This document shows positions 2,355 to 61,414 of a stretch of DNA of 64,000 bases, piece after piece. Position numbers and translations under genes: made by a program. The notes beneath the pieces are model-generated. The model was not told the origin of the DNA, searched no databases, and saw only the letters and a program-made list of their open reading frames with translations. This DNA is from an uncultured delta proteobacterium (lineage in GTDB: Bacteria; Desulfobacterota; Binatia; HRBIN30; BPIQ01), in assembly GCA_963761335.1 (NCBI GenBank), contig CAVXGR010000015.1, forward strand, positions 67,796 to 131,795, given 5' to 3'. Within the stretch, counting starts at the first letter, position 1; every line of letters begins with the position of its first letter.

Positions 2355-2487
2355 GCGTCTCAACTGGCTGCCGCACCAGCAGAAACAGCTTGACAATTGA
2401 CGGCGGCGTACAATATGGGTCGCGCCAGGGAGGGGCGGCCGACACAGTTCCACCCTGGTAACTGGCGAGCGAAGGAGGAGGATCCCT

Positions 2488-4422: not shown

Positions 4423-4582
4423 GGGTCAGAAACTTCTTGCAGTCTTCTGCGGCTCCATCCTAGACTGCGCGTCGCGGCGCTGCTGGGCGCCGTGTCGCGC
4501 CGGAACAAACCGGCCCCCGTCCGCGTTATTGTCCCGGACAGGGGCCATATGCTTACTTAGAGAAAGTACCCACGAAGAGAAG

Positions 4583-5605: not shown

Positions 5606-5629
5606 CAGCCCTCGAGGAGGTTTAGCCTT

Positions 5630-8152: not shown

Positions 8153-8211
8153 TCGCTCCATTGACAACGATTCTCTGAAGAGACAATTCTTCGAACGAGG
8201 AGGGAAAATTC

Positions 8212-35198: not shown

Positions 35199-35426
35199 TG
35201 TTGGTGCTCTCCTTTCGGCGGACAGCCAAGCAGAGTCTGCCCAGTCCGGTGCGGGAGCGCAAGAGACTCGGCGGCGCGGCACATCGCCTTGTCCCCCAAG
35301 GAGGTGCGTACTATATGCCCGACTTGGGGATATGACTTGCCGCGGTGACTCCGACCCGGTGGAGCCGGCACGGGAAGGCCGGTCGCCACGAATCCGGCCG
35401 CGGCGAGCCGCGAGCGGGGCTCCTGC

Positions 35427-39599: not shown

Positions 39600-40307
39600 A
39601 TGTCTCTTGCTATGCAGCAGGTAATGGGGTACACGCAGATACTGCAGTCGGCGTGGGCCTTGAGTCAGGGGGAGATCGATGCGATGGGGAGAGGAGAGCT
39701 GAAGGCACCCCTTCTGGATTTTCGCTGTGAAGTCGCGACGGGCGCGGCGATCGACCAGGTGATGGAGATCCGCCGCAAGGTGTACATCGAGGAATTCGGG
39801 TTTCGCCTGGCCGATGGAAGCCCGCGCGATCCTCTCGACGAGCGGTCGTATCAGCTTCTCGCGACCTCGGCGTCAGGAGAAGGAGTGGGCTCTCTTCGAT
39901 TGACCGATGCTCCGGCGCGCCCGTTCGAAATCGAAGCCTTTCTCGATCTCACCCCTTTTGTGTCGCCGGATCGACACCCGGCGGAGATCACCCGCCTTTG
40001 CATTCTGCCGCCTTACCGCCGGATCTCTCGAGCGGCGTTCGTGCATCTCGCCATTCTCGATCGTGTCTTGCGGTTGGCTCGCCAATTGGGCGCGACCGAC
40101 TTCATCGCCTCGACGCGCTCCGATTTGAGCGCCTTCTACGAATATCTGCTCTTCGAGACATACCCGGGTGCGGTCTACCAGCATCCGGAGATCGGCGGGG
40201 CGGAGCACACCCTCATGCGGCTGGATCTCACGACCGTGGTCGAGCGGTACAGGCGATTTCGCCCGACGCTCTATCCGGTCGTCGAGGCGGCATGGGAGCC
40301 CTGCTGA
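39600..40307 (+). CDS. GNAT-superfamily N-acyl amino acid synthase / LuxI-like acyltransferase (resembles the family annotated as PEP-CTERM/exosortase-system-associated acyltransferase)
   Basis: EIRRKVYIEEFGF...EITRLCILPPYRR (E-x-T/S-R-L/F-C/A-I/V core as in LuxI and FeeM-like synthases). 235 aa. Divergent from the ACP-KAS operon; its stop overlaps the kinase start by 16 nt. Confidence 0.55.
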   Translation: MSLAMQQVMGYTQILQSAWALSQGEIDAMGRGELKAPLLDFRCEVATGAAIDQVMEIRRKVYIEEFGFRLADGSPRDPLDERSYQLLATSASGEGVGSLRLTDAPARPFEIEAFLDLTPFVSPDRHPAEITRLCILPPYRRISRAAFVHLAILDRVLRLARQLGATDFIASTRSDLSAFYEYLLFETYPGAVYQHPEIGGAEHTLMRLDLTTVVERYRRFRPTLYPVVEAAWEPC

Positions 40308-42493
40308 CCCACGAGGGCCAATCGGCGGCGAACCTTGGCATGACTTACCACTGGCTCGTGCCGCTGATCGCGGCGGTTCTGAACGGCGCCCTCGGAGCGG
40401 TGGTGCTCCGCTACAACCCGCGGCATCCACTCAACCGCCTCTTTGCTCTCCTGAGCCTGACCCTGGTTTTCTGGCACCTGGACATCTTTGTCCTGTACTA
40501 CGTGCACGACGCCCAGTCGGCGTTGTACTGGAGCGACGTGTTCCGCGTCGGAACGCTGATGGCGCCCGCCGTCGCGGCGCACATGCTCTTGGTGTTCAGC
40601 GAATCGCGTTCACGGCCGTTGTGGATACTGCTCGGGATCGCCTATGCGCTCGCTATTTTCCTCGTCTTGGCGAACGCCGCGGGTCTCTTGGTCGAGGATC
40701 TCCGGACGTACAGCTGGGGGTACTACCCGATCGGGACGGACCTGTATCGACTGATCTTCGTGTCGACAGCGTTCGATTTGTCGCTGTTGATGTGGATCCT
40801 GATCGACGTCGTTCGGACGAGTGAATCGCCGCGCAAGCGTCAGCAGGCCAAGCTGTGGATTGTCGGCTCCGGCATTGCCATTCCGCTGGGGATGACGAAT
40901 CTCATCGCCACCTCGGGCATCCCGTTTTACCCCCTCGGCAACCTCGCCAACGTTGTCTACGCCGGGGTGGTTGCCTACGGGATGCTTCGCTACCGGCTGA
41001 TGGACATCGACATCGTCATCCGCAAGAGCGGTGCGTATTCGCTGGTCACCCTGCTGCTGATCGTCCCGGCCTTCGCGGTCGCGGTCTGGATGCAGGCACG
41101 GGCTTTCGGCAGAGTCGACGTCGATTTTTCCGCCGGGCTCGGCCTGCTCCTCGTTCTTGTCGCCGTCCTCTTTCCCATGCTGAGGACGCAGACCGAGTCG
41201 CGTCTCGAGGAGTCTCTCTTTCGCGAGAAGCACGAGTACCGGGGGATTCTACAAGAATTCACTCGCTCCATCGTGCGCATTCTCGACCGAGAGAAGCTGA
41301 TCCGCCAGCTGACTTCGACCCTCCTGGAGACCCTACAGCTCGACCGCGTGGCCATTGCCCTGCGCGACGACGTCAAGAACAGCCTGTCGGTGGACTACAC
41401 TCTCGGTGTCGCGGCGGCGTTGGCGGAGTTTCCCCTCCAGCATGGACTGGTCCGCGCCCTGGAAGGGCACCAGGAGGCAGTGCTTCGAGACGAGCTGGAG
41501 GTCAGTCCCAATGCCTGGGAGAGAACCGAGGCGGCGGATGCCTGTCGCATCAACGGCTGGGAGGTGTGTATCCCCCTCTTTGCAGGCGGCAAGCTGATCG
41601 GTTTCATGAGCCTGGGGCGCAAGCGCAGCATGGACGCCTTTTTTGCTGAAGACCTCGAGCTACTCGCCATGCTGGCGGCGGAAGCTTCAGTCGCCCTGGA
41701 GAATGCTCGCCTGTATGAGGAGCTCAAGAAGTCGCAGGACATCATCAGGCGCGCCGATCGCCTGTCGGCGCTGGGCACGCTCGCGGCCGGCATCGCCCAC
41801 GAGATCCGCAATCCGCTGGTATCAATCCAGACGTTCTTCCAGCTGGCGCCGCAGCGTTTGAACGATCACGAGTTTCTGACGGAATTTCTCCGCCTCACCT
41901 CCGGGGAGGTGAAGCGAATCACGGATCTGATCACCGAGCTGTTGTCGTTCGCCAAGTCGCCGAGCCCGAGCATGAGCGAGGTCTCCGTGAACGACGTGCT
42001 CGAGGGTGTGGCGCGGCTCGTCGAGCCGCAGGTGCGCAAGTCTCAGATCCAAATCATCAGAGAGCTCTCCGCCGACCTGCCGCTCGTGAGGGCAGATCAG
42101 GACCAATTGAAGCAGGTCTTTCTCAATGTTCTGCTCAACGCCGCTCAGGCCATGCAGGGTCCGGGTCGGATCATCGTGGCGACGCGGGAGATCAGTCATC
42201 ACGGCGAGCAATTTTGTCAGGTTCGGGTCACTGATTCGGGCCAGGGAATTCCCGGCGAGCTACAGGAGCACATCTTCGATCCGTTCTTCAGCACCAAGGA
42301 GAAGGGAACCGGGTTGGGCCTCGCCATTGCGCACCAGATCGTCACCGAGCACGGCGGCTTCATCGTCGTTGACAGTGAAGTCGGGACAGGGACGACATTC
42401 TGCATCCATCTTCGTCCGGCGGAAGCGAAGACGGGAGGATTGTTCGAGGATCCCCCTCTGCTGGCTGCAGGCGGGCGCCTGAAGCACTGGTGA
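40292..42493 (+). CDS. multi-TM (7TM-type) - GAF - HisKA - HATPase sensor histidine kinase, PrsK-like
   Basis: About 350 aa of TM helices, a GAF-like region (GWEVCIPLFAGGKLIGFMSLGRK), HisKA (IAHEIRNPLVSI) and HATPase (GTGLGLAIAHQIVTEHGG). The 5' end of the listed ORF is rejected. Confidence 0.8.
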   Translation: MGALLTHEGQSAANLGMTYHWLVPLIAAVLNGALGAVVLRYNPRHPLNRLFALLSLTLVFWHLDIFVLYYVHDAQSALYWSDVFRVGTLMAPAVAAHMLLVFSESRSRPLWILLGIAYALAIFLVLANAAGLLVEDLRTYSWGYYPIGTDLYRLIFVSTAFDLSLLMWILIDVVRTSESPRKRQQAKLWIVGSGIAIPLGMTNLIATSGIPFYPLGNLANVVYAGVVAYGMLRYRLMDIDIVIRKSGAYSLVTLLLIVPAFAVAVWMQARAFGRVDVDFSAGLGLLLVLVAVLFPMLRTQTESRLEESLFREKHEYRGILQEFTRSIVRILDREKLIRQLTSTLLETLQLDRVAIALRDDVKNSLSVDYTLGVAAALAEFPLQHGLVRALEGHQEAVLRDELEVSPNAWERTEAADACRINGWEVCIPLFAGGKLIGFMSLGRKRSMDAFFAEDLELLAMLAAEASVALENARLYEELKKSQDIIRRADRLSALGTLAAGIAHEIRNPLVSIQTFFQLAPQRLNDHEFLTEFLRLTSGEVKRITDLITELLSFAKSPSPSMSEVSVNDVLEGVARLVEPQVRKSQIQIIRELSADLPLVRADQDQLKQVFLNVLLNAAQAMQGPGRIIVATREISHHGEQFCQVRVTDSGQGIPGELQEHIFDPFFSTKEKGTGLGLAIAHQIVTEHGGFIVVDSEVGTGTTFCIHLRPAEAKTGGLFEDPPLLAAGGRLKHW

Positions 42494-50443: not shown

Positions 50444-51361
50444 GTGGAGAAGAGCGAGCAGATCTGGCTGGACGGCCGCTTCGTGCCGTGGGCCGAGGCG
50501 CAGGTGCACGTCCTCACCCACACGCTGCACTACGGCCTCGGCGTCTTCGAGGGCATCCGCTGCTACGAGGGGCACGACGGCAAGCCGGGAATTTTTCGTC
50601 TCGCCGAGCACGTGGAGCGCTTCTTCGCCTCGGCGCACATCCTCGGCATGAAGCTCCCCTGCGGGCGCGAGGAGCTGCTGCAGGCCTGCATCGACACGGT
50701 GCGCGTCAACCGCCTCAAGTCGTGCTACATCCGCCCGCTGGGCTTCATGTCCGACGGCGAGATGGGTCTGGCCGCCGACAACCCGGTGCGCGTCGCGGTG
50801 GCCGCGTGGCCCTGGGGCGCCTATCTCGGCGACGACGGCGTGGCCCGCGGGATCCGCCTCAAGACCTCGTCTTTTCAGCGCTTTCACCCAAACACCTTTA
50901 TGACCAAGGCAAAGGTGGTGGGCCATTACGTGAACTCGATCCTGGCGAGCCGGGAGGTGCGGGCCGAAGGCTACGACGAGGCCCTGCTGCTCGATACCGA
51001 AGGGTATGTCGCCGAAGGTAGCGGCGAGAACATCTTCGTGGTCCGCGGCGGTGCCGTGAAGACCCCGGCGCTCACCTCGGCGCTGCCGGGCATCACCCGC
51101 GACACCGCCATCGTCCTCTTGGCGGAGATCGGCCTGCCGCTGCGGGAGGCGCCGGTCACCCGCGACGAGATGTACATCGCCGACGAGGTGTTCATGACCG
51201 GCACCGCCGCCGAGATCACCCCCATCCGCGAGTACGACGACCGCCTGATCGGCCCGGGCCGTCCCGGGCCGGTGACCCAACGCCTCCAGACCCTCTACCG
51301 CGAGGCCACCAGCCGCCGCTGGGGGGCGGAGCGCGGTTGGGTCACCCCCGTGCCCGAGTAG
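50444..51361 (+). CDS. ilvE: branched-chain amino acid aminotransferase
   Basis: IWLDGRFVPWAEAQVHVLTHTLHYGLGVFEGIRCY... GTE. GTG start with GAAGGGAG 11 nt upstream preferred over the upstream ATG. Confidence 0.85.
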   Translation: MEKSEQIWLDGRFVPWAEAQVHVLTHTLHYGLGVFEGIRCYEGHDGKPGIFRLAEHVERFFASAHILGMKLPCGREELLQACIDTVRVNRLKSCYIRPLGFMSDGEMGLAADNPVRVAVAAWPWGAYLGDDGVARGIRLKTSSFQRFHPNTFMTKAKVVGHYVNSILASREVRAEGYDEALLLDTEGYVAEGSGENIFVVRGGAVKTPALTSALPGITRDTAIVLLAEIGLPLREAPVTRDEMYIADEVFMTGTAAEITPIREYDDRLIGPGRPGPVTQRLQTLYREATSRRWGAERGWVTPVPE

Positions 51362-51396
51362 CGAGACATTCAATTTTCTCCTGTGTTGCCTTTTAC

Positions 51397-51425
51397 TTGA
51401 CAGCCGCCGGTCGCCAAACTATAAG
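51397..51425 (+). promoter_or_regulatory. sigma70-like promoter TTGACA-N17-TATAAG for paralog pair 1
   Basis: Read directly; about 100 nt upstream of the 51524 ATG. Confidence 0.55.
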
Positions 51426-51523
51426 GCGTCCCTCGGTGTTTCGGCCGGGCCGGCGAGGGTTTTCAGAGGAGACACCTGGGAGTGCGGGGAGTTAGCGGTT
51501 CCCCGGCGGAAGGAGACTCGGGA

Positions 51524-52750
51524 ATGGGATGGACGCGCGGACACTTCATGCGCCTTGGGCTTGTGGGGCTCGCCGCCAGCTGGCTCCTCGCGGCATCGGC
51601 TGGTGCTGTGGTCACCACCGAGCGCACGGCCTCGATCCTGATCTTCCCCAAGATCCTCTCCAACGGTACCTACGACACCATCGTGCAGATGACCAATCGG
51701 TCGAATAACGTCGTCTACGCGCACTGCTTCTACGTCGATGCCTCACTGACCGACCCCTCGCAGCCCGAAAGCCCGCTCAACACCCGGCAGTGGCAGGAAG
51801 TCGATTTCGACATCGTGCTGACCAAGCAGCAGCCGACCCACTGGGTGGTTTCTTTGGGCCGCGCCACCAATCCCTTCGATTCATCGTGCACCCGCCAGGG
51901 CGTCTGCATCGGCGGCACTGCTCCGGCGGACACCGCCTGCGGAACCGGGCTGCCGGCCTGCCCCGGTGCCGGCGGCCGCTGCTCGAACACCGACTGCAGC
52001 GATGCCGGCTTCGATCCGGGCCGCATCCCGCCGGTCTCTCCTGGGTTCGAGGGTGAGCTCAAGTGCATCGAGGTCGATCAGTCGGGAGCGCCCCTCAACG
52101 GCAACAACCTGAAGGGCGAGGCGACGCTGCTATCGGTGGCCGAGGTTCCGGGTAAGTCGAAGATCGGAGATGCGAGCAAGTACAACGCCATCGGCGTGGT
52201 CGGGCTGAACGACAATGACGGCGACACGGTGCTCTGCCTGGGGGGCGGGGCCAGCAGCAGCTGTCCCTTCGGCGCCGAGTACGACGGATGCCCAAACGAG
52301 GTACGCTTCAACCACTTCGCCGAGGGGGCAACCGATCCGGTGGTCGAGGCCTTCGGCAACGGCGACCCGAACAATGCGCCGTCGAGCGTCTACACCGAGC
52401 TCACCATCGTTCCCTGCACCGAGGACTTCGAGCAGCAGCGCCCGACCACGGTGCGCATCAACATCAACAGCTACAACGAGTTCGAGAGCGTCTTCTCCTC
52501 CAGTACCCAGGTCGATTGTTGGGGCAACTTCACGCTCGAGTCGATCCGCCCGGTGTTTGACGTCGGCCCCATCGGCACTCGTTTCGTGCAGACGATCCTG
52601 CGACCGGCCCCCGGAGACTCGGGCTTCGTCGGCGTGATGGAGGAGTTCCACACCCAGGAAGGCGCCGGAACCGCGCGCGACGCGATGAACTTGCACGTCA
52701 TCGGCGAGCGCACCGTCTCCGACCTGATCTCCATTCCGGAGGGGCCGTGA
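51524..52750 (+). CDS. secreted cysteine-rich protein, type A (pair 1) of an uncharacterised paralogous family
   Basis: RBS AGGAGA 7 nt upstream. Signal peptide, then TTERTASILIFPKI...TNRSN...HCFYVDA...LTKQQPTHWVVS...GELKCIEVD...KGEATL...KYNAIG...EYDGCP...LTIVPCTED...YNEFE...DCW. Has an extra Cys-rich insertion. Confidence 0.8.
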   Translation: MGWTRGHFMRLGLVGLAASWLLAASAGAVVTTERTASILIFPKILSNGTYDTIVQMTNRSNNVVYAHCFYVDASLTDPSQPESPLNTRQWQEVDFDIVLTKQQPTHWVVSLGRATNPFDSSCTRQGVCIGGTAPADTACGTGLPACPGAGGRCSNTDCSDAGFDPGRIPPVSPGFEGELKCIEVDQSGAPLNGNNLKGEATLLSVAEVPGKSKIGDASKYNAIGVVGLNDNDGDTVLCLGGGASSSCPFGAEYDGCPNEVRFNHFAEGATDPVVEAFGNGDPNNAPSSVYTELTIVPCTEDFEQQRPTTVRININSYNEFESVFSSSTQVDCWGNFTLESIRPVFDVGPIGTRFVQTILRPAPGDSGFVGVMEEFHTQEGAGTARDAMNLHVIGERTVSDLISIPEGP

Positions 52751-52785
52751 GCACGCTGGGTCTGGGGAAGGGAAAGGAGAAGTCC

Positions 52786-54015
52786 ATGCGGGGCTGGCAC
52801 GGCATCTGGTCGACCCTTTCGCTGTCGCTGGCGGCACTGGCGGTTCTCGCGGGCGCGGCGGTGGTCCGAGCCGACGTGCAGTCGGATCAGCCGGCGGCGA
52901 TTCTGGTCTTTCCGAAGCTGCTCGTCGACGTCAGCAGCGACGGCGTCACCCCGGCGCGCGTCGACACGCTGGTGCGCATCACCAACGCCTCGAACACTCC
53001 GGTGACTCTGCAGTGCTTCTACGTGAACGCCACGCCGAGCTGCACCACCGGCCCAGGCAATTGCATCACCAGCCAGCGCTTCGGACCGATCACCTGCAGC
53101 GGCGGCATCACCGCCTGCAAGCCGCAGTGGCAGGAGACTGATTTCCACGTCGTTCTCACCGAGAACCAGCCGGTTGCCTGGCTGGTCTCCAACGGCGCCG
53201 TGGACTGCCAGTCGACGCCCAACGGCAAAAACATCGATCCCGACGACAACGATCCGTGCTTCCCGCTCGACGGCATCTTCCGCACCGGGCCGCACGGCAA
53301 CAACAACGGCAACAGCCGCATTCCGCCGGTGAGCGAGCTACCCTTCATCGGCGAGCTCAAGTGCATCACCGTCGACGACGTCTCCAATGATCAGCCGGTG
53401 GCGCGCAACGACGTGTTCGGCTCGGTGCAGATCATCGAGTCGACGCCCGAGGGGAAGATCGACATCTCGGGATACAACGCCATCGGCATTCAGGCACTGC
53501 CCGACAACGACGGCAACAAGACACTCGTCCTCGGGCGTCCGGGCACCCCGGGCGTCGAGTACAACGGCTGCCCGAACATTCTCATCCTCGACCACTTCTT
53601 CGATCTGGCGACCGATCCGGTGACCCTCGAGCCGGTCACCACCGACCTCACCCTGGTGCCCTGCTCGGAGGACTTTCTGCGGCAGACACAGGAGACGATC
53701 ACGGCGCAGTTCATCGTGTTCAACGAGTTCGAGCAGCGCCTGTCGACGAGTATCCCGGTGACCTGCTTTCGCGAGGTGCAGCTGTCGAACATCGACACGC
53801 TGGTGAACAACCGCTCGATCTTCAGCGCGCCGGTCATGGGGACGCTGACGGGACAGACGCGCATCCGCGGTGTCGCCGACGACCGCACGGATATCGGTCG
53901 CGCCCTGCTGGGAGTGGCCGAAGAGTATCGACCCAGTGGCACGGCGGCATTCAACATTCACGAGCAGGGCGTGCGTGAGCAGAACGATTTTATATACCTG
54001 CCGGGCCTGCAATAG
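52786..54015 (+). CDS. secreted cysteine-rich protein, type B (pair 1)
   Basis: RBS AAGGAGA. Signal peptide ...VRA|DVQSDQPAAILVFPKL...TNASN...QCFYVNA...GELKCITVD...GYNAIGIQ...EYNGCP...LTLVPCSED...FNEFEQR...TGQTRIRG. Starts 35 nt after the type-A stop. Confidence 0.8.
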   Translation: MRGWHGIWSTLSLSLAALAVLAGAAVVRADVQSDQPAAILVFPKLLVDVSSDGVTPARVDTLVRITNASNTPVTLQCFYVNATPSCTTGPGNCITSQRFGPITCSGGITACKPQWQETDFHVVLTENQPVAWLVSNGAVDCQSTPNGKNIDPDDNDPCFPLDGIFRTGPHGNNNGNSRIPPVSELPFIGELKCITVDDVSNDQPVARNDVFGSVQIIESTPEGKIDISGYNAIGIQALPDNDGNKTLVLGRPGTPGVEYNGCPNILILDHFFDLATDPVTLEPVTTDLTLVPCSEDFLRQTQETITAQFIVFNEFEQRLSTSIPVTCFREVQLSNIDTLVNNRSIFSAPVMGTLTGQTRIRGVADDRTDIGRALLGVAEEYRPSGTAAFNIHEQGVREQNDFIYLPGLQ

Positions 54016-54032
54016 GCGAAACGCATTTCATC

Positions 54033-54062
54033 TTGACAGGTATGCGAATTAGCGGTTATAAG
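54033..54062 (+). promoter_or_regulatory. sigma70-like promoter TTGACA-N18-TATAAG for paralog pair 2
   Basis: Read directly, 17 nt after the pair-1 B stop. Same hexamers as the pair-1 promoter. Confidence 0.55.
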
Positions 54063-54142
54063 GCCGCGACTTACGGTCACGGGAATCGTCCGCACCGCAA
54101 GCTCGTAGTCTGTTGGGACGGTGATCGAAAGGAGGAGGGCAA

Positions 54143-55327
54143 ATGCTGAGGCAGCATGGGCGAGTTGGGCTACTGGTGATTGTCGTGGCGAGCCTGGCGC
54201 TAGCCGGGGTGGCGACGGCCGACGTGAGCACGGAGCGGAGCGGTTCGATTCTGGTCTTTCCGAAGATCATTGCCAACGCCTCGCGCGACACCATCATCCA
54301 GATCACGAACACGTCGAACTCGCTGGTGCGGGCCCACTGTTTCTACGTGAACGCCGCGCCATCCGACGTGCCGCCATTCGATCCGCTGTGGATCGAGGTG
54401 GACTTCAACATCACGCTCACCCGGCAGCAGCCGACCCACTGGGTGGTGAGCACCGGGCGGCGGGTGAACCCGTTCGACGCGGTGTGCGACTCGTCGGGGG
54501 TGACGAACTGCAACGACGCCGGCTTCGACCCGGGGCTGATCCCGCCGGTGGTGCCGGACTTCATCGGTGAGCTGAAGTGCGTCGAGGTGGACGACAGCGG
54601 CGCGCCGCTGTCGGGCAACCACCTGAAGGGTGAGGCGACGCTGGTGACCCGGGCCAACGGGGACGTGTCGAAGTACAACGCCATCGCCGTGCTCGGCAAC
54701 GAGAACAACGGCGACGGACTGCTGGTGCTCGGCGGCGGCCAGTGCGTGGGCGACGGTGGGGCGCAGGGAGCGGTGTGCAGCTCGGACGACGACTGCGGCG
54801 ACGCGGCCCCGTGCGCACCGGAGTACAACGGCTGCCCGCAGACGTGGATATTGAACCACCTGGCGTCGGGAGCGCCGGATCCGGCGATCGAGAATCTGGG
54901 CGGCGGACCGTCGAGCGTGGAGACGGAGCTGACGGTGGTGCCGTGCACGCAGAACTACGAGACCCAGGAGCCCACCGAGGTGCGGCTGCAGATGCTGACC
55001 TACAACGAGTTCGAGAACGTGTTCTCGTTCTCCTTTGCGGTGAAGTGCTGGGCGAACGTGGACCTGGGGAGCCTGGGATCGACGCCGCTGACCTTCCTGG
55101 GGCAGCTGGCGGGGCAGTCGCCGTCGAGCTTTCCGCTGGGGACGATGTTCCTGCAGACGCGCTTCCGCTCGGTGCCGAACACGCCGTACGGCGTGATGAT
55201 GGTGGCCGAGGAGTTCCACACCGATGAGGCTGGACAGACGGCGTCGGCGGCGGTGAACCTGCACATCGAAGGGGAGCGCACGACTCCCGACGTCATCACC
55301 ATCCCGGGTGAGCAGATCGCGCCGTGA
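54143..55327 (+). CDS. secreted cysteine-rich protein, type A (pair 2)
   Basis: RBS GGAGGAGGG. ADVSTERSGSILVFPKII...HCFYVNAAP...LTRQQPTHWVVS...GELKCVEVDDSGAPLSGNHLKGEATL...C-terminal DVITIPGEQIAP. Confidence 0.8.
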   Translation: MLRQHGRVGLLVIVVASLALAGVATADVSTERSGSILVFPKIIANASRDTIIQITNTSNSLVRAHCFYVNAAPSDVPPFDPLWIEVDFNITLTRQQPTHWVVSTGRRVNPFDAVCDSSGVTNCNDAGFDPGLIPPVVPDFIGELKCVEVDDSGAPLSGNHLKGEATLVTRANGDVSKYNAIAVLGNENNGDGLLVLGGGQCVGDGGAQGAVCSSDDDCGDAAPCAPEYNGCPQTWILNHLASGAPDPAIENLGGGPSSVETELTVVPCTQNYETQEPTEVRLQMLTYNEFENVFSFSFAVKCWANVDLGSLGSTPLTFLGQLAGQSPSSFPLGTMFLQTRFRSVPNTPYGVMMVAEEFHTDEAGQTASAAVNLHIEGERTTPDVITIPGEQIAP

Positions 55328-55368
55328 AGCGGACAAGACCTGGCTGGCGGACGAAAGGAGATAGGAAG

Positions 55369-56544
55369 ATGAGAACCCGGAAGTGGGCGGTGATGACTGC
55401 GATGCTGGGTACGGCCTTGGTGCTGCACTCGGTGACCCCCGCAACGGCGGATATCGCCTCCGACCGCGCTGCCGCGATCTTGGTGTTTCCCAAGATCGTG
55501 ACCGACACCTCGGAAGGCACGGACACGTTGATTCAGATCACCAACACCTCCAACGATCCCGCCCTTCTGCACTGCTTCTACATCAATGCGAACAATCACT
55601 GCACGATCTCCGGCACCGTGTGCGATCTCGACGCCGGCATCGGCCGGCGATGCCCGTTGGCGGGCGATGTCTGCCTGCCGAGCTGGGTGGAGACGGACTT
55701 CCGCGTCCTGTTGACCATGCAGCAGCCCATTGCCTGGACCGCCTCCGAGGGCCTCGCCAACGGCGACGTCCCGATCGACGGCTTCTTCCGCGTCTCACCC
55801 TCCGGACAGACCAACGTGGGCACGCGCGTGCCGCCGGTTCCGGCGGAAGCGTTGAGCACCGAGACAGACCCGGACCTCTCCTTCACTGGCGAGCTCAAGT
55901 GCATCGTCGTCGACGGCCAGGAACGAGCCATCCCCAGCAACGTCGTCAAGGGAGAGGCGACGATCGTGACCCGTCAGGGTGAGATCCTCCTGGACGCCGA
56001 GAAGTACAACGCCGTCGGCATCCAGGCCATCGAGGGCGATTCCAACGGCGACAACATCCTTGAGCTCGGCGGCGACAGCAACGAGTACAACGGCTGCGCC
56101 AGCGTGCTGATCGTCGACCATTTCTTCGACTACGCCATCAACCCGGTGACCAGCACGCCGGTGTTCTCCGACCTGACGCTGGTGCCCTGCAATGAGGATC
56201 TCCTCAATCAGGTACCCGGCGGGGGCACGGCGCAGTACCTCGTCTACAACGAGTTCGAGCAGCGCTTTTCCACCAGTACTCCCATCCAGTGTTTCTACGA
56301 GACGCAAATGTCTCGAATCGACACGCGCAACACCACGCGGTCGATCTTCAGCGCCTTCGTCGCCGGGACGCTGACCGGACAGACGCGCATCCGCGGCGTC
56401 AATACCGGCTTCATCGGCTTGCTGCGCGAGCGCACCGGCGCCGATTTCCGCGATGAGATCCCGCGCTATATGGGCCGCAGCGCCGCGGTGAATGTCGACA
56501 TGCAGGGCGAGCGGCCCGTTTCGGATCAGATCGTCCTGCCCTAG
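55369..56544 (+). CDS. secreted cysteine-rich protein, type B (pair 2)
   Basis: RBS AAAGGAGA. ADIASDRAAAILVFPKIV...HCFYINA...GELKCIVVD...KYNAVGIQ...EYNGCA...LTLVPCNED...YNEFEQRFSTSTPIQCF...TGQTRIRG. Confidence 0.8.
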   Translation: MRTRKWAVMTAMLGTALVLHSVTPATADIASDRAAAILVFPKIVTDTSEGTDTLIQITNTSNDPALLHCFYINANNHCTISGTVCDLDAGIGRRCPLAGDVCLPSWVETDFRVLLTMQQPIAWTASEGLANGDVPIDGFFRVSPSGQTNVGTRVPPVPAEALSTETDPDLSFTGELKCIVVDGQERAIPSNVVKGEATIVTRQGEILLDAEKYNAVGIQAIEGDSNGDNILELGGDSNEYNGCASVLIVDHFFDYAINPVTSTPVFSDLTLVPCNEDLLNQVPGGGTAQYLVYNEFEQRFSTSTPIQCFYETQMSRIDTRNTTRSIFSAFVAGTLTGQTRIRGVNTGFIGLLRERTGADFRDEIPRYMGRSAAVNVDMQGERPVSDQIVLP

Positions 56545-56582
56545 CGGCCCCGATCTGAGGGTCCGCAGCCTGCGGAATCGAG

Positions 56583-56613
56583 CGGGGAAGGGAAACCTTC
56601 CCCGCTTTTTTTA
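56583..56613 (+). terminator. rho-independent terminator after pair 2
   Basis: GCGGGGAAGG gaaa CCTTCCCCGC TTTTTTT. The T-run overlaps the stop codon of the convergent DUF385 gene. Confidence 0.8.
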
Positions 56614-57009
56614 CCTCCCCAGGTCCAGGCGGATCACCACCGGCTTGCCGCGGCCGAGAGGCAGGCCGACCCAGGGTGCCAGCCGCGCCAGCCAGTACTT
56701 GCGGCGGAAGAGCGCCAGCAGGCGCCTGGCCTCGGCGGCATCCGTCACCGGAGCGGCCCGCCCGGAGAAGGGACGTCCCGCGATGTGGATGGTGACCTCG
56801 GGGCGGTGCAACAGATTGGCGTACCAGCCCTTCTCGGCTTTTGGGCCCGCCTGCACCACGACAGCGTCGCCCTCGGCAACGAACCAGATCTCGGCGCTGC
56901 GTTCCTTTCCGCTGCGCCGCCCGACGGTTTTCAGCTGCGCCGTTCGCGTGCCCCTCAGTGCGTGCAAGAGACCGCACCCATCTCCGTCACCAACGTCTCC
57001 GATGCTCAT
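56611..57009 (-). CDS. DUF385-like small oxidoreductase (deazaflavin/nitroreductase-family split-barrel)
   Basis: MSIGDVG...VGRRSGKERSAEIWFVAEGDAVVVQAGPKAEKGWYANLLHRPEVTIHIAG...ARRLLALFRRKY...; 132 aa. Only the 3' end of listed ORF 56611-58467 is used. Confidence 0.55.
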   Translation of the reverse strand: MSIGDVGDGDGCGLLHALRGTRTAQLKTVGRRSGKERSAEIWFVAEGDAVVVQAGPKAEKGWYANLLHRPEVTIHIAGRPFSGRAAPVTDAAEARRLLALFRRKYWLARLAPWVGLPLGRGKPVVIRLDLGR

Positions 57010-57087
57010 TTCGAGGCCCCACTGTAGTCGCTGCGGAGATTCAGGCAAGGCCGGCGGGGGGATAAGGCAAAACCCCGCAACCGGCCG

Positions 57088-57116
57088 TTGCGGAAGGGGC
57101 GGGCAGCAGGTATAAC
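57088..57116 (+). promoter_or_regulatory. sigma70-like promoter TTGCGG-N17-TATAAC for paralog pair 3
   Basis: Read directly, ~77 nt upstream of the 57193 ATG. Confidence 0.45.
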
Positions 57117-57192
57117 CCCCCCGCCTAATCGCCAAGGGGTCGACTGGCGGCGCGCCGGACTCCCCGGGGCGGGGAGCGAAAGGAGGGTGGAA

Positions 57193-58452
57193 ATGGGCAG
57201 GCAACTGGTGCGCGTCGCGCTTCTGGTGGCGGTCGCTGCAGCGCTGGCAGGTCAGGTGGCGCTGGCCGAGGTCAGCACCGAGCGCAGCGCGTCGATCGTC
57301 GTCTTTCCCAAGGTGATCGCCGACGGTACGCGCGATACCATCATTCAGCTCGGCAACACCTCGAACTCCCTGGTCCGCGCGCACTGCTTCTACGTGAATG
57401 CGGCGCCCCGCGATTCGTCGCGCGACCCCGACCCGATCGTCAATCCGCCGCTGTGGCAGGAGATCGACTTCGACATCTTGCTCACCCGCCAGCAGCCGAC
57501 GCACTGGGTGGTGAGCCGGGGTCGCCGGGTCAACCCACTGGACCAGGCCTGCAGCGCCGACAACCTCGACTGTGACAATGCCGGCTTCGATCCCGGCCTG
57601 ATTCCGCCGGTGCTCCCTGACTTCGTGGGCGAGCTCAAATGCGTCGAGGTGGATGACGGCGGCTCGCCCCTCAGCGGCAATCACTTGAAAGGGGAGGCGA
57701 CGCTGATCGCGCAGCGGCCCACGGTGGTGGCTCCCTACGGCACTCCGGCCGTGCTCCTGCCGGGCGATCCGTCGAAGTACAACGCCATCGGCATCCAGGG
57801 TGTCGAGAACAACGGCGACGGGACGCTCGTCCTCGGCGGTGGCCAGTGCGTCGGGGCGGGCGATGCCAGCGGGGCCGTCTGTACCGGCGATGCCGACTGC
57901 GGTGACGCCGGACCGTGTGCCCCCGAGTACGACGGCTGCCCGGACACCTGGATTCTGAACCACACCACGGAAGGGGCCCCGGATCTGGTGCTCGAGGAGG
58001 CCGGGGCCATGGGAACCAGCGCCGTCGACACCGAGCTGACCGTGGTGCCGTGCACCCAGAACTTCGAGACACAGGAGTTCAAGCCATCGAAAGTCACCCT
58101 GCAGTTCCGCACCACCAACGAGTTCGAGTCCACCTTTTCGATGTCGACCACCGTGCAGTGCTGGGGCAACTTCAGCATTGATGAGATCGGCGGCTCCTTC
58201 GGCCTGACGCTGAATGGAACCCCGATCCTGGATCCGCAGGGTACGATGTTCCTGGAGACCCGCATCCGTTCGGCGGGCGACAATGCCGGCGGCGTGCTCA
58301 TGGTCGGTGAGGAGTTTCACACCGGCCGGCTGGGTACGATCGGCACCACCCCCGTGCGTCTGGCGTCGCCTGCTGCCTCCAACTTGCACGTCGAGGGGCA
58401 GGCAGCGGGGCCGGACGTGATCACCATTCCCGCTGAGCAGATCGCTCCGTGA
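57193..58452 (+). CDS. secreted cysteine-rich protein, type A (pair 3)
   Basis: RBS AAAGGAGGG. AEVSTERSASIVVFPKVI...HCFYVNAAP...LTRQQPTHWVVS...GELKCVEVDDGGSPLSGNHLKGEATL...C-terminal DVITIPAEQIAP. Closest to the pair-2 A protein. Confidence 0.8.
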   Translation: MGRQLVRVALLVAVAAALAGQVALAEVSTERSASIVVFPKVIADGTRDTIIQLGNTSNSLVRAHCFYVNAAPRDSSRDPDPIVNPPLWQEIDFDILLTRQQPTHWVVSRGRRVNPLDQACSADNLDCDNAGFDPGLIPPVLPDFVGELKCVEVDDGGSPLSGNHLKGEATLIAQRPTVVAPYGTPAVLLPGDPSKYNAIGIQGVENNGDGTLVLGGGQCVGAGDASGAVCTGDADCGDAGPCAPEYDGCPDTWILNHTTEGAPDLVLEEAGAMGTSAVDTELTVVPCTQNFETQEFKPSKVTLQFRTTNEFESTFSMSTTVQCWGNFSIDEIGGSFGLTLNGTPILDPQGTMFLETRIRSAGDNAGGVLMVGEEFHTGRLGTIGTTPVRLASPAASNLHVEGQAAGPDVITIPAEQIAP

Positions 58453-58489
58453 TCCTGGTGCAGCCATGAGCGCGAAAGGAGAAGGTCCG

Positions 58490-59827
58490 ATGAAGATGTG
58501 GATTGGGCTCGCCGTGACTGCCGCTCTGGGATTGGGGGCCCTGCTCTGCGCAGCTCCGGCCCGAGCGGATGTCGCTTCCGATCAACCCGCGGCCATCCTG
58601 GTTTTTCCAAAGGTCGTCACCGGCGACGTCACCATCGGCAGTGGCGTTTTCAGCGCCGTTCTAAAATCCGATACCATCATTCAGATCAGCAATACCTCGA
58701 GCGACCCGGTGACCCTGCAGTGCTTCTACGTGAACGCCAACAGCCATTGCAGCACCAGTGGCCTCGTCTGCAACCCGCTGGTGACACCGGCGTGCCCTGC
58801 GCCGGAGGACGTCTGTCTTCCCGGCTGGGTGGAGACGGACTTCCGCGTCGTGCTCACGCCGTTCCAGCCACTCGGGTGGACGGTCTCGTCCGGGCTCGCC
58901 TCGGAAGACCTGCCACTCGATGGGGTTTTGCAGCGCGGACCTACCGGGCAGAGCAACGTCGGAACCCGCGTTCCGCCGCTGCGCGCCGAGCCGGCCAGCG
59001 TCGGCGTTCTCGGTCAGATCGATGACGGCCGTTCCGTCAAGGGCGAGCTGAAGTGCGTCGTCGTCGACGATCAGGGAAACGCCGTGGCCCGCAACGTGGT
59101 GAAGGGAGAGGCGACGATCATCTCCAGTCTCTCCGTGCTGACCAGCATCGGTGCGGGTGCCGACGTGCAGATCCCCAACGCCGAAAGGTATAACGCCGTC
59201 GGCATCCAGGCGTCCGGGGGAGATGCCAACGGCGACAAGGTTCTCGATCTCGGCGGGACCGCGGGAGAGTACAACGGCTGCGCCAACGTGCTGATCATGG
59301 ACCATTTCTTCGACTATTCCCCCAATCCGGTGGCGAATACGCAGGTCTTCTCCGACCTCACCCTGGTGCCGTGCAGCGAGAACCTGCGCACCCAGGTTCC
59401 CCAGCAGGTGGTGGCGCAGTATCTGGTATTCAACGAGTTCGAGCAGCGCTTCTCGACCAGCACGCCGTTTCAGTGCTACTTCGACCGGCCCCTGTCGCGC
59501 ATCGACACCTCGAACGCGGCGCGCTCGGTCTTCAGCGTTTTCGTCTCCGGCACGCTCACCGGGCAGACGCGCATTCGCGGCATCGGCTCCGGATTGGTCG
59601 GGGTGTTGCGCGAGCGCCAGGTCGGCATTCCCGATGAGGCCGACTCCGTGCTCACCGAGACCACATCGGCGGCCGACGCAGTGGCGTCCTTCGACGGCAC
59701 GTTGCTGGACATGGAACGCGACGTTCCCGGTTTCGGCTCCGTTTTCAATGCGGCCTTCCGTTCCTCGATGATCAACTTGCACATCCAGGGCGATCGGCCC
59801 GAGGCCGATCATCTGGTCCTGCCCTAA
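58490..59827 (+). CDS. secreted cysteine-rich protein, type B (pair 3)
   Basis: RBS AAAGGAGAAGG. ADVASDQPAAILVFPKVV...QCFYVNA...GELKCVVVDDQG...RYNAVGIQ...EYNGCA...LTLVPCSEN...FNEFEQRFSTSTPFQCY...TGQTRIRG. Confidence 0.8.
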   Translation: MKMWIGLAVTAALGLGALLCAAPARADVASDQPAAILVFPKVVTGDVTIGSGVFSAVLKSDTIIQISNTSSDPVTLQCFYVNANSHCSTSGLVCNPLVTPACPAPEDVCLPGWVETDFRVVLTPFQPLGWTVSSGLASEDLPLDGVLQRGPTGQSNVGTRVPPLRAEPASVGVLGQIDDGRSVKGELKCVVVDDQGNAVARNVVKGEATIISSLSVLTSIGAGADVQIPNAERYNAVGIQASGGDANGDKVLDLGGTAGEYNGCANVLIMDHFFDYSPNPVANTQVFSDLTLVPCSENLRTQVPQQVVAQYLVFNEFEQRFSTSTPFQCYFDRPLSRIDTSNAARSVFSVFVSGTLTGQTRIRGIGSGLVGVLRERQVGIPDEADSVLTETTSAADAVASFDGTLLDMERDVPGFGSVFNAAFRSSMINLHIQGDRPEADHLVLP

Positions 59828-59833
59828 GTTCCC

Positions 59834-59880
59834 CCGGGAGGCGGAAGCCGTCGCTTCCGCCTCCCCGGGCGCTTCTTTCA
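59834..59880 (+). terminator. terminator-like GC hairpin after pair 3
   Basis: CCCGGGAGGCGGAAGC cgtc GCTTCCGCCTCCCCGGG followed by a weak T tract (gcttctttc). Confidence 0.55.
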
Positions 59881-59983
59881 CTGCACCCCAATGCCTATCG
59901 AGCCGAGTGACCGACGCCGGGGGCGTTGTTGAAGATCGGACTGGACCCTGAGAGAATCGCGCCGAGGCCGCAGGGCCGGCCAA

Positions 59984-61414
59984 ATGGGGGAGAAAGAGCT
60001 GATTCCCGATGTCCTCGCCGATCGCTATGCGAGCGAGGCGATGACGGCGATCTGGTCGCCGGCCGGCAAGGTGCGCCTCGAGCGCGAGCTTTGGATCGCG
60101 GTCATGCGGGCGCAGCGCGCCCTCGGCGTCGACATTCCCGAGGAGGCGATCGCCGCCTACGAGCGGGTCAAGGACCAGGTTGACCTCGCCGGCATCCGGC
60201 AACGCGAGCGCAAGCTGCGCCACGACGTCAAGGCGCGCATCGAGGAGCTCTGCGATCTGGCCGGCTACCAGCACATCCACAAGGGTCTGACCAGCCGCGA
60301 CCTCACGGAGAACGTCGAGCAGCTCCAAGTGCTGCGCTCGCTCCAGCTCCTGCGCGTCAAGTACGCCGCCGCCCTCCTGCGCCTGGCGGAGCGTGCCGAG
60401 GAGTTTCGCGCTCTCGTGCTGACGGCGCGGACGCACAACGTTCCCGCGCAGGCGACCACCCTGGGCAAGCGCCTGGCGATGTTCGGCGAGGAGATGCGCC
60501 TTGCCTTGGTGCGCCTCGAGAACCTCATCGACCGGTATCCACTTCGCGGCATCAAGGGCGCCGTTGGCACCCAGCTCGACCAGATCACCCTGCTCGGCGA
60601 CGCCGAGCGGGCACGGCACCTCGAAGAGGACGTGGTTCGCAACCTCGGCTTCCACGAGGCGCTTGGCGCCGTCGGCCAGGTGTATCCCCGCAGTCTGGAC
60701 CTCGAGGTGCTCTCGGCGCTGCTGCAGCTCGCTGCCGGTCCCAGCAGCTTTGCCAAGACGCTGCGGCTGATGACCGGATTCGAGCTCGCCTCGGAGGGTT
60801 TTCAGGAGGGCCAGGTAGGCTCGTCGGCGATGCCCCACAAGCGCAACGCCCGCAGCTGCGAGCGCATCAACGGTTTCACCGTCGTGCTCTCCGGATTTCT
60901 ACAGATGGGTGCGGGCCTTGCGGGTGATCAGTGGAACGAGGGAGACGTGTCCTGCTCGGTGGTCCGACGCGTGGCGCTGCCCGGGGCCATGTTCGCGATC
61001 GACGGCCTGCTCGACACGTTTCTCACCGTGGTGCGCGAGATGGAGGTCTATCCGGCGATGATCGACGCCGAGCGACAGCGCTACCTGCCCTTTCTGGCGA
61101 CCACCACGGTGCTCATGGCCGCGGTCAAGAAGGGGGCGGGGCGCGAGGCCGCTCATCAGGCCATTCAGCAGCACGCCGTGGCAGTGGCGGCACGCCTGCG
61201 CGAGGGCGGGCGCGAGGAGGCCGATCTCGTCGGTCGTCTGGCTGCGGACGCGCGCATCGGCCTGTCGCGGGCGGAGATCGAGGCGCTGTTCGCCGCCGAC
61301 GGTGAGCTGGTGGGCGCTGCCGTCGCCCAGACGGATGCTTTCGTGCAGGCGGCGAGGGCGCTGGCAGCGCGTATCCCCGATGCGGCTTCCTATCAGCCGC
61401 CGCCGCTCCTCTAG
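59984..61414 (+). CDS. purB: adenylosuccinate lyase (Bacillus-type PurB)
   Basis: DRYASEAMTAIWSPAGKV..., fumarate-lyase signature GSSAMPHKRN. 476 aa with a C-terminal extension. Confidence 0.8.
   Translation: MGEKELIPDVLADRYASEAMTAIWSPAGKVRLERELWIAVMRAQRALGVDIPEEAIAAYERVKDQVDLAGIRQRERKLRHDVKARIEELCDLAGYQHIHKGLTSRDLTENVEQLQVLRSLQLLRVKYAAALLRLAERAEEFRALVLTARTHNVPAQATTLGKRLAMFGEEMRLALVRLENLIDRYPLRGIKGAVGTQLDQITLLGDAERARHLEEDVVRNLGFHEALGAVGQVYPRSLDLEVLSALLQLAAGPSSFAKTLRLMTGFELASEGFQEGQVGSSAMPHKRNARSCERINGFTVVLSGFLQMGAGLAGDQWNEGDVSCSVVRRVALPGAMFAIDGLLDTFLTVVREMEVYPAMIDAERQRYLPFLATTTVLMAAVKKGAGREAAHQAIQQHAVAVAARLREGGREEADLVGRLAADARIGLSRAEIEALFAADGELVGAAVAQTDAFVQAARALAARIPDAASYQPPPLL

Follow-up and report, generated by a model that had tools for sequence, protein, structure and literature searches.

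Paired Binatia genes for exported, cysteine-rich proteins with an ASRAH-like fold: candidates for a disulfide-linked heterodimer

Introduction

[quoted passage not shown] Sugars or small molecules are the predicted ligands of the ASRAH domain. [quoted passage not shown]

Other systems invite comparison on single points. The Ena proteins of Bacillus endospore appendages (Ena1A/Ena1B, DUF3992) are paralogous jellyroll subunits encoded by adjacent genes and joined by covalent intermolecular disulfides, as is proposed below for a pair of Binatia subunits that we call A and B. Bacterial FG-GAP/VCBS (integrin-alpha-like) surface proteins are linked to the same family through fusions, the family domain being joined to the FG-GAP propeller C-terminus in three relatives (P0130, P0144 and P0148), whereas the six proteins described here lack FG-GAP repeats and no FG-GAP gene adjoins their array. 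Carbohydrate-binding modules and lectins differ from A-B in that there is no sequence match between them and no catalytic partner domain in A-B. Here, we describe six A and B genes from the window, the whole 64-kb stretch of Binatia DNA that was analysed, and follow their relatives through other genomes.

Six paralogs in three gene pairs

The six genes (A1, B1, A2, B2, A3 and B3) were delimited as open reading frames with starts refined from ribosome-binding sites (Table 1), and the window holds no further member of the family. BLASTP identities are higher within A (43-60%) and within B (43-51%) than between the two (29-35%), so the subtypes strictly alternate, and open reading frames, alignment and identities together bear out the A-B, A-B, A-B arrangement proposed in the first-pass annotation. 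The six-way alignment has 74 invariant columns, among which the scaffold motifs listed in that annotation recur (FPK, TN.S, CFY, W.E.DF, LT..QP..W, PP, GELKC, YNA, EY.GC, VPC, NEFE and C[WFY]). Every B gene is preceded by an AAGGAG ribosome-binding site and begins 35, 41 and 37 nt after its A gene in pairs 1, 2 and 3, in agreement with the spacing first reported (35-41 nt). The array is not contiguous, as a minus-strand PF04075 gene lies between pairs 2 and 3, and the GC3 of the six genes (0.81-0.91) is like that of the neighbouring housekeeping genes. A DVITIP.EQIAP tail, once given as common to subtype A, is found in A2 and A3 but not in A1, which ends in DLISIPEGP; the C-termini noted across the array are IP.EQIAP or VLP.

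Table 1. Features of the array, in window coordinates
Feature	Position	Strand	Details
Pair 1 promoter	51397..51425	+	TTGACA-N17-TATAAG; at least 10/12 sigma-70 consensus matches
A1 ribosome-binding site			AAGGAG 8 nt 5' of ATG
A1	51524..52750	+	408 aa; signal peptide AGA/VV; 13 Cys
A1 Cys332 (fifth universal Cys)	52517-52519	+	codon
B1	52786..54015	+	409 aa; signal peptide VRA/DV; 11 Cys; start 35 nt past A1 stop
B1 Cys327 (fifth universal Cys)	53764-53766	+	codon; B1 has AAGGAG ribosome-binding site
Pair 2 promoter	54033..54062	+	TTGACA-N18-TATAAG; at least 10/12 sigma-70 consensus matches
A2	54143..55327	+	394 aa; signal peptide ATA/DV; 11 Cys
A2 Cys302 (fifth universal Cys)	55046-55048	+	codon
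B2	55369..56544	+	391 aa; signal peptide ATA/DI; 9 Cys
B2 Cys308 (fifth universal Cys)	56290-56292	+	codon
Strong hairpin terminator	56580..56607		12-bp stem then T-run; between convergent B2 and minus-strand gene
Interrupting non-family gene	56611..57009	-	132 aa; F420H2-dependent quinone reductase / PNPOx-like; PF04075 E=1.6e-12
Pair 3 weak promoter-like site	57088..57116	+	TTGCGG-N17-TATAAC; 9/12 matches
A3	57193..58452	+	419 aa; signal peptide ALA/EV; 11 Cys; 60% identity to A2
A3 Cys323 (fifth universal Cys)	58159-58161	+	codon
B3	58490..59827	+	445 aa; signal peptide ARA/DV; 9 Cys in mature part; 51% identity to B2
B3 Cys329 (fifth universal Cys)	59474-59476	+	codon
Hairpin 3' of B3	59836..59865	+	perfect 13-bp stem, GGGAGGCGGAAGC-cgtc-GCTTCCGCCTCCC; T tail poor

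On inspection, all six N-termini show a positive n-region, a hydrophobic h-region and small residues at -3 and -1, with AxA-type cleavage sites (Table 1), and the AlphaFold models begin with a low-confidence helix followed by a disordered cleavage region. The absence of a lipobox or sorting signal, also claimed at first pass, stands: NCBIfam recognises no sorting domain in the six proteins and none has a Cys at +1 of the cleavage site. Among relatives, B-type proteins carry a Pro/Thr-rich linker that leads into a Cys, a hydrophobic helix and an Arg tail; this ending is present in P0124 and P0152, and NCBIfam does not recognise it. Other relatives are fused to FG-GAP, CARDB, EF-hand and PD40 elements or Vgb-lyase-like propellers. 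These features place the proteins, by inference, in the periplasm or at the cell surface.

Expression signals, distribution and duplication history

Across both strands of the 64-kb window, only the promoters of pairs 1 and 2 match the sigma-70 consensus at 10 or more of 12 positions, the cut-off of the scan, for which shuffled sequence gives 0.7. The site ahead of pair 3 falls below this threshold and is not significant alone, so the near-consensus promoter originally assigned to each pair is strong for pairs 1 and 2 but weak for pair 3. The hairpins described after pairs 2 and 3 are both present, the latter with a poor T tail. In other genomes, TTGACA-N17-TATAAG lies 5' of 67 of 88 A genes (76%), of none of 86 B genes and in 2% of random windows, and an extended Shine-Dalgarno sequence, GAAAGGAGGAGG, is invariant. 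Each pair would form an operon of promoter, A gene and B gene, three in all, and the conserved near-consensus promoter together with the invariant leader implies that expression of this envelope or surface component would be very high and constitutive; the family probably ranks among the most highly expressed exported proteins of Binatia.

Clustering at 50% identity divides the family into about 1,700 clusters, nearly all of them from Binatia-like genomes, and no database searched has a name for it. No sequence match was returned from Pfam, NCBIfam or PHROG, the six proteins having no Pfam hit at E<=1 and 64 members none at E<=10, and the family profile matched no PDB sequence at E<=10. Other genomes supplied 74 distinct loci, in all of which a B gene on the same strand comes directly after each A gene, so the two subtypes are indeed conserved as neighbours elsewhere, with hardly an exception. 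Each genome holds several pairs, and the arrays have a fixed place in the core genome: in 32 loci they follow ilvE, and at 14 secondary loci the pair lies between a divergent FG-GAP gene and LptD. Housekeeping genes flank them and offer no clue to function.

Within the window, A2/A3 (60%) and B2/B3 (51%) are mutually closest paralogs, with pair 1 as outgroup to both, so the pair was duplicated as a unit; a two-gene unit was multiplied rather than a single gene, as had been argued. In other genomes too, the first pair of the array is of the A1/B1 type. The duplications had been called old, which is true of the ancient split between pair 1 and pairs 2/3, but the duplication that gave rise to pairs 2 and 3 is younger and lineage-specific.

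Such predicted abundance can be read in another way, namely that A and B are building blocks of a lattice or fibre in the envelope or at the surface, akin to an S-layer or a disulfide-cross-linked coat, for which ligand binding is not the purpose. The strength and conservation of promoter and Shine-Dalgarno sequence, the fixed core-genome positions (both those after ilvE and those at FG-GAP/LptD), the presence of several pairs per genome and the surface-anchor-like tails of some relatives all speak for a coat of this kind, which we regard as possible though unlikely.

An ASRAH-like sandwich with a candidate ligand cleft

AlphaFold models both A2 and B2 with confidence, and the only strong structural match to either model is the TM1070/ASRT beta-sandwich: Foldseek returns 1nc7 only, both models superpose on 1NC7 and 2II7 at 1.7-2.1 A over 105-109 of 116 residues, and all other structural matches score at most 7.4. 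Scores against CBM32/F5-8 type C, CBM35, CBM4 and fucolectins reflect generic sandwich similarity. The first-pass view that the family could be assigned to no characterised domain thus holds for sequence searches, which came back empty, but not for the fold.

Several traits of the ASRAH superfamily are shared beyond the eight-stranded sandwich, namely conserved polar residues on strand 2, an invariant Asn at the end of that strand before a tight turn, and the existence of extracellular versions. The similarity is, however, structural only, with no relationship detectable at the sequence level; the Trp of strand 1 is missing, its strand being (S/A)ILVFPK with a conserved Phe-Pro-Lys; the A-B sandwich bears long inserts knotted by disulfides and is coupled to a second one, of about 200 residues, that lacks a close structural match; and no sugar-metabolism genes are linked to the array. 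We picture each subunit as a Sec-exported, disulfide-rich, all-beta protein that most likely has two domains, an ASRAH-type sandwich, probably N-terminal, with variable cysteine-knotted loops, and the beta-sandwich of about 200 residues.

A candidate ligand cleft would be lined by the near-invariant polar residues of strand 2 (D49, Q53 and N56 in A2), of which D49 and Q53 align by motif with H25 and C29 of TM1070, and would be bounded by the subunit interface, as in ASRAH dyads and tetrads. By analogy with that superfamily, its ligand would be a sugar or another small molecule, and the variable loops would tune specificity in each paralog pair.

Cysteine parity and a natural fusion point to an A-B heterodimer

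Cysteine counts in the mature A and B proteins are mostly odd (76 of 90 for A, 74 of 82 for B, 150 of 172 in total; binomial p about 1e-24). Five positions are universal, and the subtype-specific cysteines always come in even numbers. Among 213 domains, the pattern at the universal positions is CCCCC in 197, CCCCx in 15 and CCxxC in one, and these patterns of loss imply that C231-C268 and C66-C146 are disulfide-paired and that the fifth universal Cys, C302, is unpaired. Of the 104 adjacent pairs whose sequences span the site, 102 have the fifth Cys in both partners. It is absent from both in L077, L079, P0152 and the fusion P0153, a co-loss with a Fisher p of 1.3e-5 when phylogeny is ignored; the A subunits of these four cases are 31-38% identical to one another, and the cases may represent one or a few ancient events. 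The fusion P0153 is a natural A-B protein, a single polypeptide with a single signal peptide and its halves in gene order, the first half favouring the A model (168 bits, versus 55 for B) and the second the B model (204, versus 65 for A).

The proposal that A and B work together gains support from duplication as a unit, the fusion, odd cysteine parity and co-loss of the fifth Cys. We infer that A and B would assemble 1:1 as a heterodimer, locked in Binatia by an intermolecular disulfide between the unpaired fifth cysteines (Cys302 of A2 and Cys308 of B2), which would bring two ASRAH-like sandwiches together in trans. The dyad would then consist of two paralogous polypeptides plus a disulfide, as opposed to the tandem repeats or homotetramer of known ASRAH proteins. 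We favour, with moderate confidence, abundant exported disulfide-linked A-B heterodimers in which a putative interface would bring the two cysteines close together and an ASRAH-like cleft would bind a sugar or small ligand.

A and B could instead be independent co-transcribed paralogs or homodimers, the fifth Cys serving as a buried free thiol or an A-A or B-B link, and one-sided losses of this residue (from A in L044, from B in L076 and P0124) as well as A-B-B and B-A-B arrangements (L002, L016 and L082) are in keeping with that idea. It is nonetheless improbable given that A and B keep their adjacency and order almost everywhere, even at only 30-40% sequence identity, that a fusion in gene order exists and that both partners lack the fifth Cys in four pairs. 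An exported hydrolase, lyase or oxidoreductase, with an active site at E85, D87, E143, K145, E227, Y228, E289 and E291 or at the odd Cys, would account for the many charged residues invariant across both subtypes and for the fusion of relatives to Vgb-lyase-like and PD40 propellers; about 7% of domains, however, have Gly, Ala, Asn, Phe, His or Pro in place of the fifth Cys, which rules this residue out as an essential nucleophile, and the fold matches no catalytic domain, only non-catalytic ligand-binding sandwiches and carbohydrate-binding modules, which makes an enzyme a poor prospect. A two-component secreted toxin like PirA/PirB or BinA/BinB is very improbable, as the family has largely been seen to occupy the same genomic position across nearly all Binatia genomes, and neither fold similarity to a toxin subunit nor a mobile or accessory context was found for A-B.

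Implications for Binatia

Binatia are abundant and globally distributed. To our knowledge none has been cultured, and we know of no earlier work on their cell envelope. Judged from genome sequences, the A-B family is a hallmark of this uncultured class, and its standing is underlined by promoters of pairs 1 and 2 that are the strongest in the region and by the number of clusters and pairs, held at fixed positions. The conserved promoter and leader provide a defined expression signal for the class. That A and B form a disulfide-linked heterodimer with a binding cleft of the ASRAH type is a concrete, testable hypothesis and, if true, extends a little-studied sugar-binding superfamily to a two-polypeptide form. 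More speculatively, the heterodimers might be a lineage-defining, highly expressed envelope or surface component, a new surface lectin or coat built as an ASRAH dyad in trans and held by one disulfide. Two ancient pair types with lineage-specific duplicates would then equip Binatia with a range of binding specificities, directed for instance at their own envelope glycans or at environmental polymers.

Organization of the A-B gene array

The six related plus-strand genes that the first-pass annotation placed at 51.4-59.9 kb are borne out by ORF listing, alignment and BLASTP, with start codons placed behind AAGGAG or GGAGG ribosome-binding sites. Their products share 74 invariant columns in a six-way alignment of A1 to B3, in which the motifs listed earlier are all present, and because BLASTP identity within a subtype (A versus A 43-60%; B versus B 43-51%) exceeds that between A and B (29-35%), the two subtypes alternate strictly, with A-to-B gaps of 35, 41 and 37 nt in pairs 1, 2 and 3. 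By inspection, all six proteins start with a signal peptide whose basic n-region leads into a hydrophobic stretch and then a small-x-small site (AGA, ATA, ALA, VRA, ATA and ARA). The genes have a GC3 of 0.81-0.91, like that of the surrounding housekeeping genes, and no seventh copy of the family was found in the 64-kb window; A2 and B2 have unnamed entries in NCBI/ENA.

While three pairs are indeed present, the array is not uninterrupted, as a minus-strand gene overlooked in the first-pass annotation, encoding a 132-aa F420H2-dependent quinone reductase/PNPOx-like protein, lies between pairs 2 and 3. It converges on B2, the hairpin 3' of B2 sitting between both stop codons, and may mark the junction of a recent duplication of pair 3. 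The hairpins reported to follow pairs 2 and 3 were both located. Elsewhere in the window are a four-gene cluster encoding DUF1302, a BNR/Ycf48-like propeller, an MMPL (RND-type) transporter and a DUF1329/LolA-like protein, and, upstream of the dprA-topA region, a second MMPL-family transporter with a 7TM-GAF-HisKA-HATPase sensor kinase. A DUF1302 gene also adjoins a distant A-B pair at L079, a locus from another genome.

Features of the array, other genes of the window, and third paralogs at loci (L0xx) from other genomes
Feature	Position	Strand	Remarks
Pair 1 promoter	51397-51425	+	TTGACA-N17-TATAAG; at least 10/12 versus sigma-70 consensus
A1	51524-52750	+	start codon set from junction reading
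B1	52786-54015	+	start codon set from junction reading
Pair 2 promoter	54033-54062	+	TTGACA-N18-TATAAG; at least 10/12 versus sigma-70 consensus
A2	54143-55327	+	start codon set from junction reading
B2	55369-56544	+	start codon set from junction reading
Hairpin 3' of B2	56580-56607		strong, with T-run
Interrupting gene	56611-57009	-	PF04075, E=1.6e-12
Pair 3 promoter-like site	57088-57116	+	TTGCGG-N17-TATAAC; 9/12
A3	57193-58452	+	start codon set from junction reading
B3	58490-59827	+	start codon set from junction reading
Hairpin 3' of B3	59836-59865		perfect, 13 bp
Four-gene cluster	2401-9519	+	
Second MMPL transporter and sensor kinase	35349-37808, 39731-42490	+	
Third paralog	L049:8635-9786		
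Third paralog	L051:12433-13512		
Third paralog	L058:8297-9352		
Third paralog	L059:12591-13646		
Third paralog	L069:12478-13497		

Conserved promoters and leaders

A near-consensus sigma-70 promoter had been proposed before each pair. This stands for pairs 1 and 2, whose sites are the only matches of at least 10/12 on either strand of the 64-kb window (shuffles give 0.7), but not for pair 3, whose weaker site carries no weight alone. In other genomes, 67 of 88 A genes are preceded by a match of at least 10/12, nearly always the exact TTGACA-N17-TATAAG, as against 0 of 86 B genes, and random windows contain one in 2% of cases; across the fetched loci and the window there are 71 such promoter sites (e.g. 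L004:7376, L020:9831 and L035:9891). Sigma-70 promoters normally need T at the last -10 position; here that position is a conserved G (TATAAG) in nearly all genomes, and a scan demanding T misses the promoters of pairs 1 and 2. Downstream of the promoter comes a leader of ~70-90 nt that is conserved in part and ends at its 3' side in an extended Shine-Dalgarno sequence, GAAAGGAGGAGG, which is invariant. Rfam recognizes neither a riboswitch nor any other family in 51300-60000, and 26 leaders compared with RNAalifold share no conserved or consensus RNA structure. From the conservation of promoter and leader, each A-B pair therefore makes up one transcription unit that is itself conserved and probably geared to strong expression.

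A-B pairing across genomes

With A2 as query, at least 1,713 proteins match at E<=0.001 among 8,000 candidates scored, none with a Pfam domain, the sole name being 'hypothetical protein' and the sole organism named Candidatus Binatia, and when 1.84 billion representatives are searched exhaustively with a profile, 1,702 clusters match at E<=1e-3, of which 582 also reach E<=1e-30. Scanning one genome per species yielded 74 distinct loci, often several per genome, from genomes that are nearly all metagenome-assembled Binatia or bins labelled Deltaproteobacteria or Myxococcales. When every ORF in the fetched loci was sorted by A and B profiles, A was directly followed by B on the same strand in every locus, so that the adjacency seen in the window recurs elsewhere; a few loci have an additional B or an ambiguous third paralog.

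The site of the array is itself conserved, running dprA-topA-trmFO-ilvE and then A-B pairs, with ilvE immediately upstream in 32 loci. A second type of locus (n=14; L048, L049, L051, L052, L054, L056-L059, L063, L069, L071, L073 and L074) consists of a divergent FG-GAP gene 80-300 bp upstream, the A-B pair, a convergent LptD gene and a Mur ligase gene, with an MsbA-like ABC exporter nearby on the upstream side, and is an envelope-biogenesis neighbourhood. In some of these FG-GAP-linked loci, A-B is followed by a shorter third paralog whose scores with the A profile and with the B profile are much the same, and which may be a distinct C subtype.

The duplications, originally all taken to be old, are of two ages. 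By orthology scores, arrays in other genomes begin with a pair of A1/B1 type and continue with pairs of A2/A3-B2/B3 type, and hence pair 1 diverged from pairs 2 and 3 in ancient times, whereas the duplication that gave A2 and A3 (60% identity) is specific to the window's lineage. As A2/A3 and B2/B3 are mutual closest paralogs, the pair was duplicated as a unit. The family protein P0153 is a genuine fusion, in which a single signal peptide leads an A-type half that runs on into a B-type half.

Fold and comparison with ASRAH domains

Sequence comparison places the family in no described group: Pfam, NCBIfam and PHROGs give no meaningful match to the six window proteins, nor does Pfam at E<=10 to 64 family members, a family profile has zero matches at E<=10 among PDB sequences, and the literature searched on Binatia and metaproteomics does not mention the family. 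A weak match of B2 to the methylamine-dehydrogenase small subunit was rejected (NCBIfam E=0.005, 16.6 bits where the cut-off is 197; Pfam E=0.15), falling as it does within the Cys-rich insert. The family is without name or characterization, yet its fold and probable logic are of a known kind.

AlphaFold2 models of A2 (pLDDT 87.3, pTM 0.85) and B2 (pLDDT 88.4, pTM 0.86) are confident and predict almost wholly beta strands. The sole Foldseek match at E<1e-3 is TM1070 (PDB 1NC7), a beta-sandwich protein of the ASRAH superfamily; weaker structural matches are to generic sandwiches, mostly carbohydrate-binding modules. In the A2 model, the eight predicted strands of the N-terminal part (~110 residues, in 36-101 and 140-183) surround an insert of low confidence (102-139), and we tentatively place the TM1070-like domain here because this layout fits the aligned length and the ~160-column Foldseek alignment. 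The C-terminal ~200 residues are modelled as a second sandwich without a close structural match, and hhalign of the N- against the C-terminal half gives a probability of 0.2%, i.e. no internal repeat.

The ASRAH domain is an eight-stranded sandwich and predicted binder of sugars or small molecules, with intracellular and secreted branches, marked by a Trp opening strand 1 and a near-invariant Asn closing strand 2 (De Souza, Iyer and Aravind, PMC2739507). In TM1070, H25 and C29 of strand 2 touch the bound ligand; the walls of the ASRAH cleft come partly from the dimer interface, and outside the ASRT-like family the domains always occur as dyads or tetrads (PMC2739507). In the A-B family, strand 2 reads (R)DTIIQITN and is likewise closed by Asn (N56, invariant in A; N59 equivalent in B), and the near-invariant D49 and Q53 would, by motif register, match the two ligand-contact positions of TM1070. 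However, the strand-1 Trp is missing and no sequence profile connects the family to the ASRAH superfamily, and for these reasons we read it as working like an ASRAH dyad rather than as a demonstrated member.

A putatively unpaired cysteine shared by both subunits

Mature proteins of both subtypes mostly have an odd number of Cys residues (A 76/90; B 74/82; binomial p about 1e-24), the six window proteins having 13, 11, 11, 9, 11 and 9. Both subtypes share five universal Cys columns (A2 C66, C146, C231, C268 and C302); of the subtype-specific Cys residues, those of B occur in groups of four and those of A in twos. In a set of 213 domains that takes in distant relatives, the universal columns show the patterns CCCCC (197), CCCCx (15) and CCxxC (1). 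C231 and C268, being lost jointly, would form a disulfide pair, leaving C66-C146 as the remaining pair, and C302, which can be lost alone, would be the unpaired one. A cupredoxin-like or catalytic role for this odd Cys was rejected, as it is replaced by Gly and others in ~7% of domains and a nearby His/Met ligand pattern is absent.

This fifth Cys is kept by both partners in 102 of the 104 adjacent A-B pairs covering the relevant columns. It is absent from both A and the adjacent B in L077 and L079, from both family domains of the family protein P0152, and from both domains of the P0153 fusion, where the covalent peptide link would replace the need for a disulfide. Speaking against joint loss, one-sided losses affect A in L044 and B in L076 and P0124, and L082 has an extra third B without the fifth Cys beside an A-B pair that retains it. 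The co-loss is significant with phylogeny ignored (Fisher p 1.3e-5) and is suggestive rather than conclusive, since all of these losses may go back to a single ancient event or to a few.

Localization

Relatives are fused to FG-GAP propellers, CARDB, EF-hand/dockerin-like segments, and PD40 and Vgb-lyase-like propellers, partners typical of extracytoplasmic proteins. Binatia genomes encode LptD and so have an outer membrane, making the periplasm the default location; export beyond it is possible. The absence of a sorting tail and lipobox holds for the six window proteins. In the B-type relatives P0124 (residues ~390-500) and P0152 (~340-470), a Pro/Thr-rich linker, Gly/Ser-Cys motif, hydrophobic helix and Arg cluster resemble, in layout, a C-terminal sorting signal of exosortase or rhombosortase type, and NCBIfam recognizes no known sorting domain in either tail. 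The predicted ORFs of P0124 and P0152 also swallow the gene that follows, an A bearing a signal peptide of its own.

A model for A-B function

The proposal that A and B are paired subunits working as a secreted heterodimer is supported by the co-conserved pairs, duplication as a unit, the fusion, the odd Cys and its co-loss. On balance, we favour a disulfide-linked, ligand-binding A-B heterodimer, in which A and B would be exported in abundance and joined by a disulfide, uniting two ASRAH-like sandwiches that, by analogy, would bind a sugar or small ligand, with variable cysteine-knotted loops differing from pair to pair. A purely structural coat is unlikely. Rather less probable still are paralogs acting independently or as homodimers, set against the nearly universal A-B order, the fusion and the co-loss of the fifth Cys. 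We think it very improbable that the proteins are enzymes, and a binary toxin, also a two-component arrangement, is scarcely credible. The A-B family overturns nothing known, and offers a solid lead, open to testing, on how the cell envelope works in a class with no cultured member.
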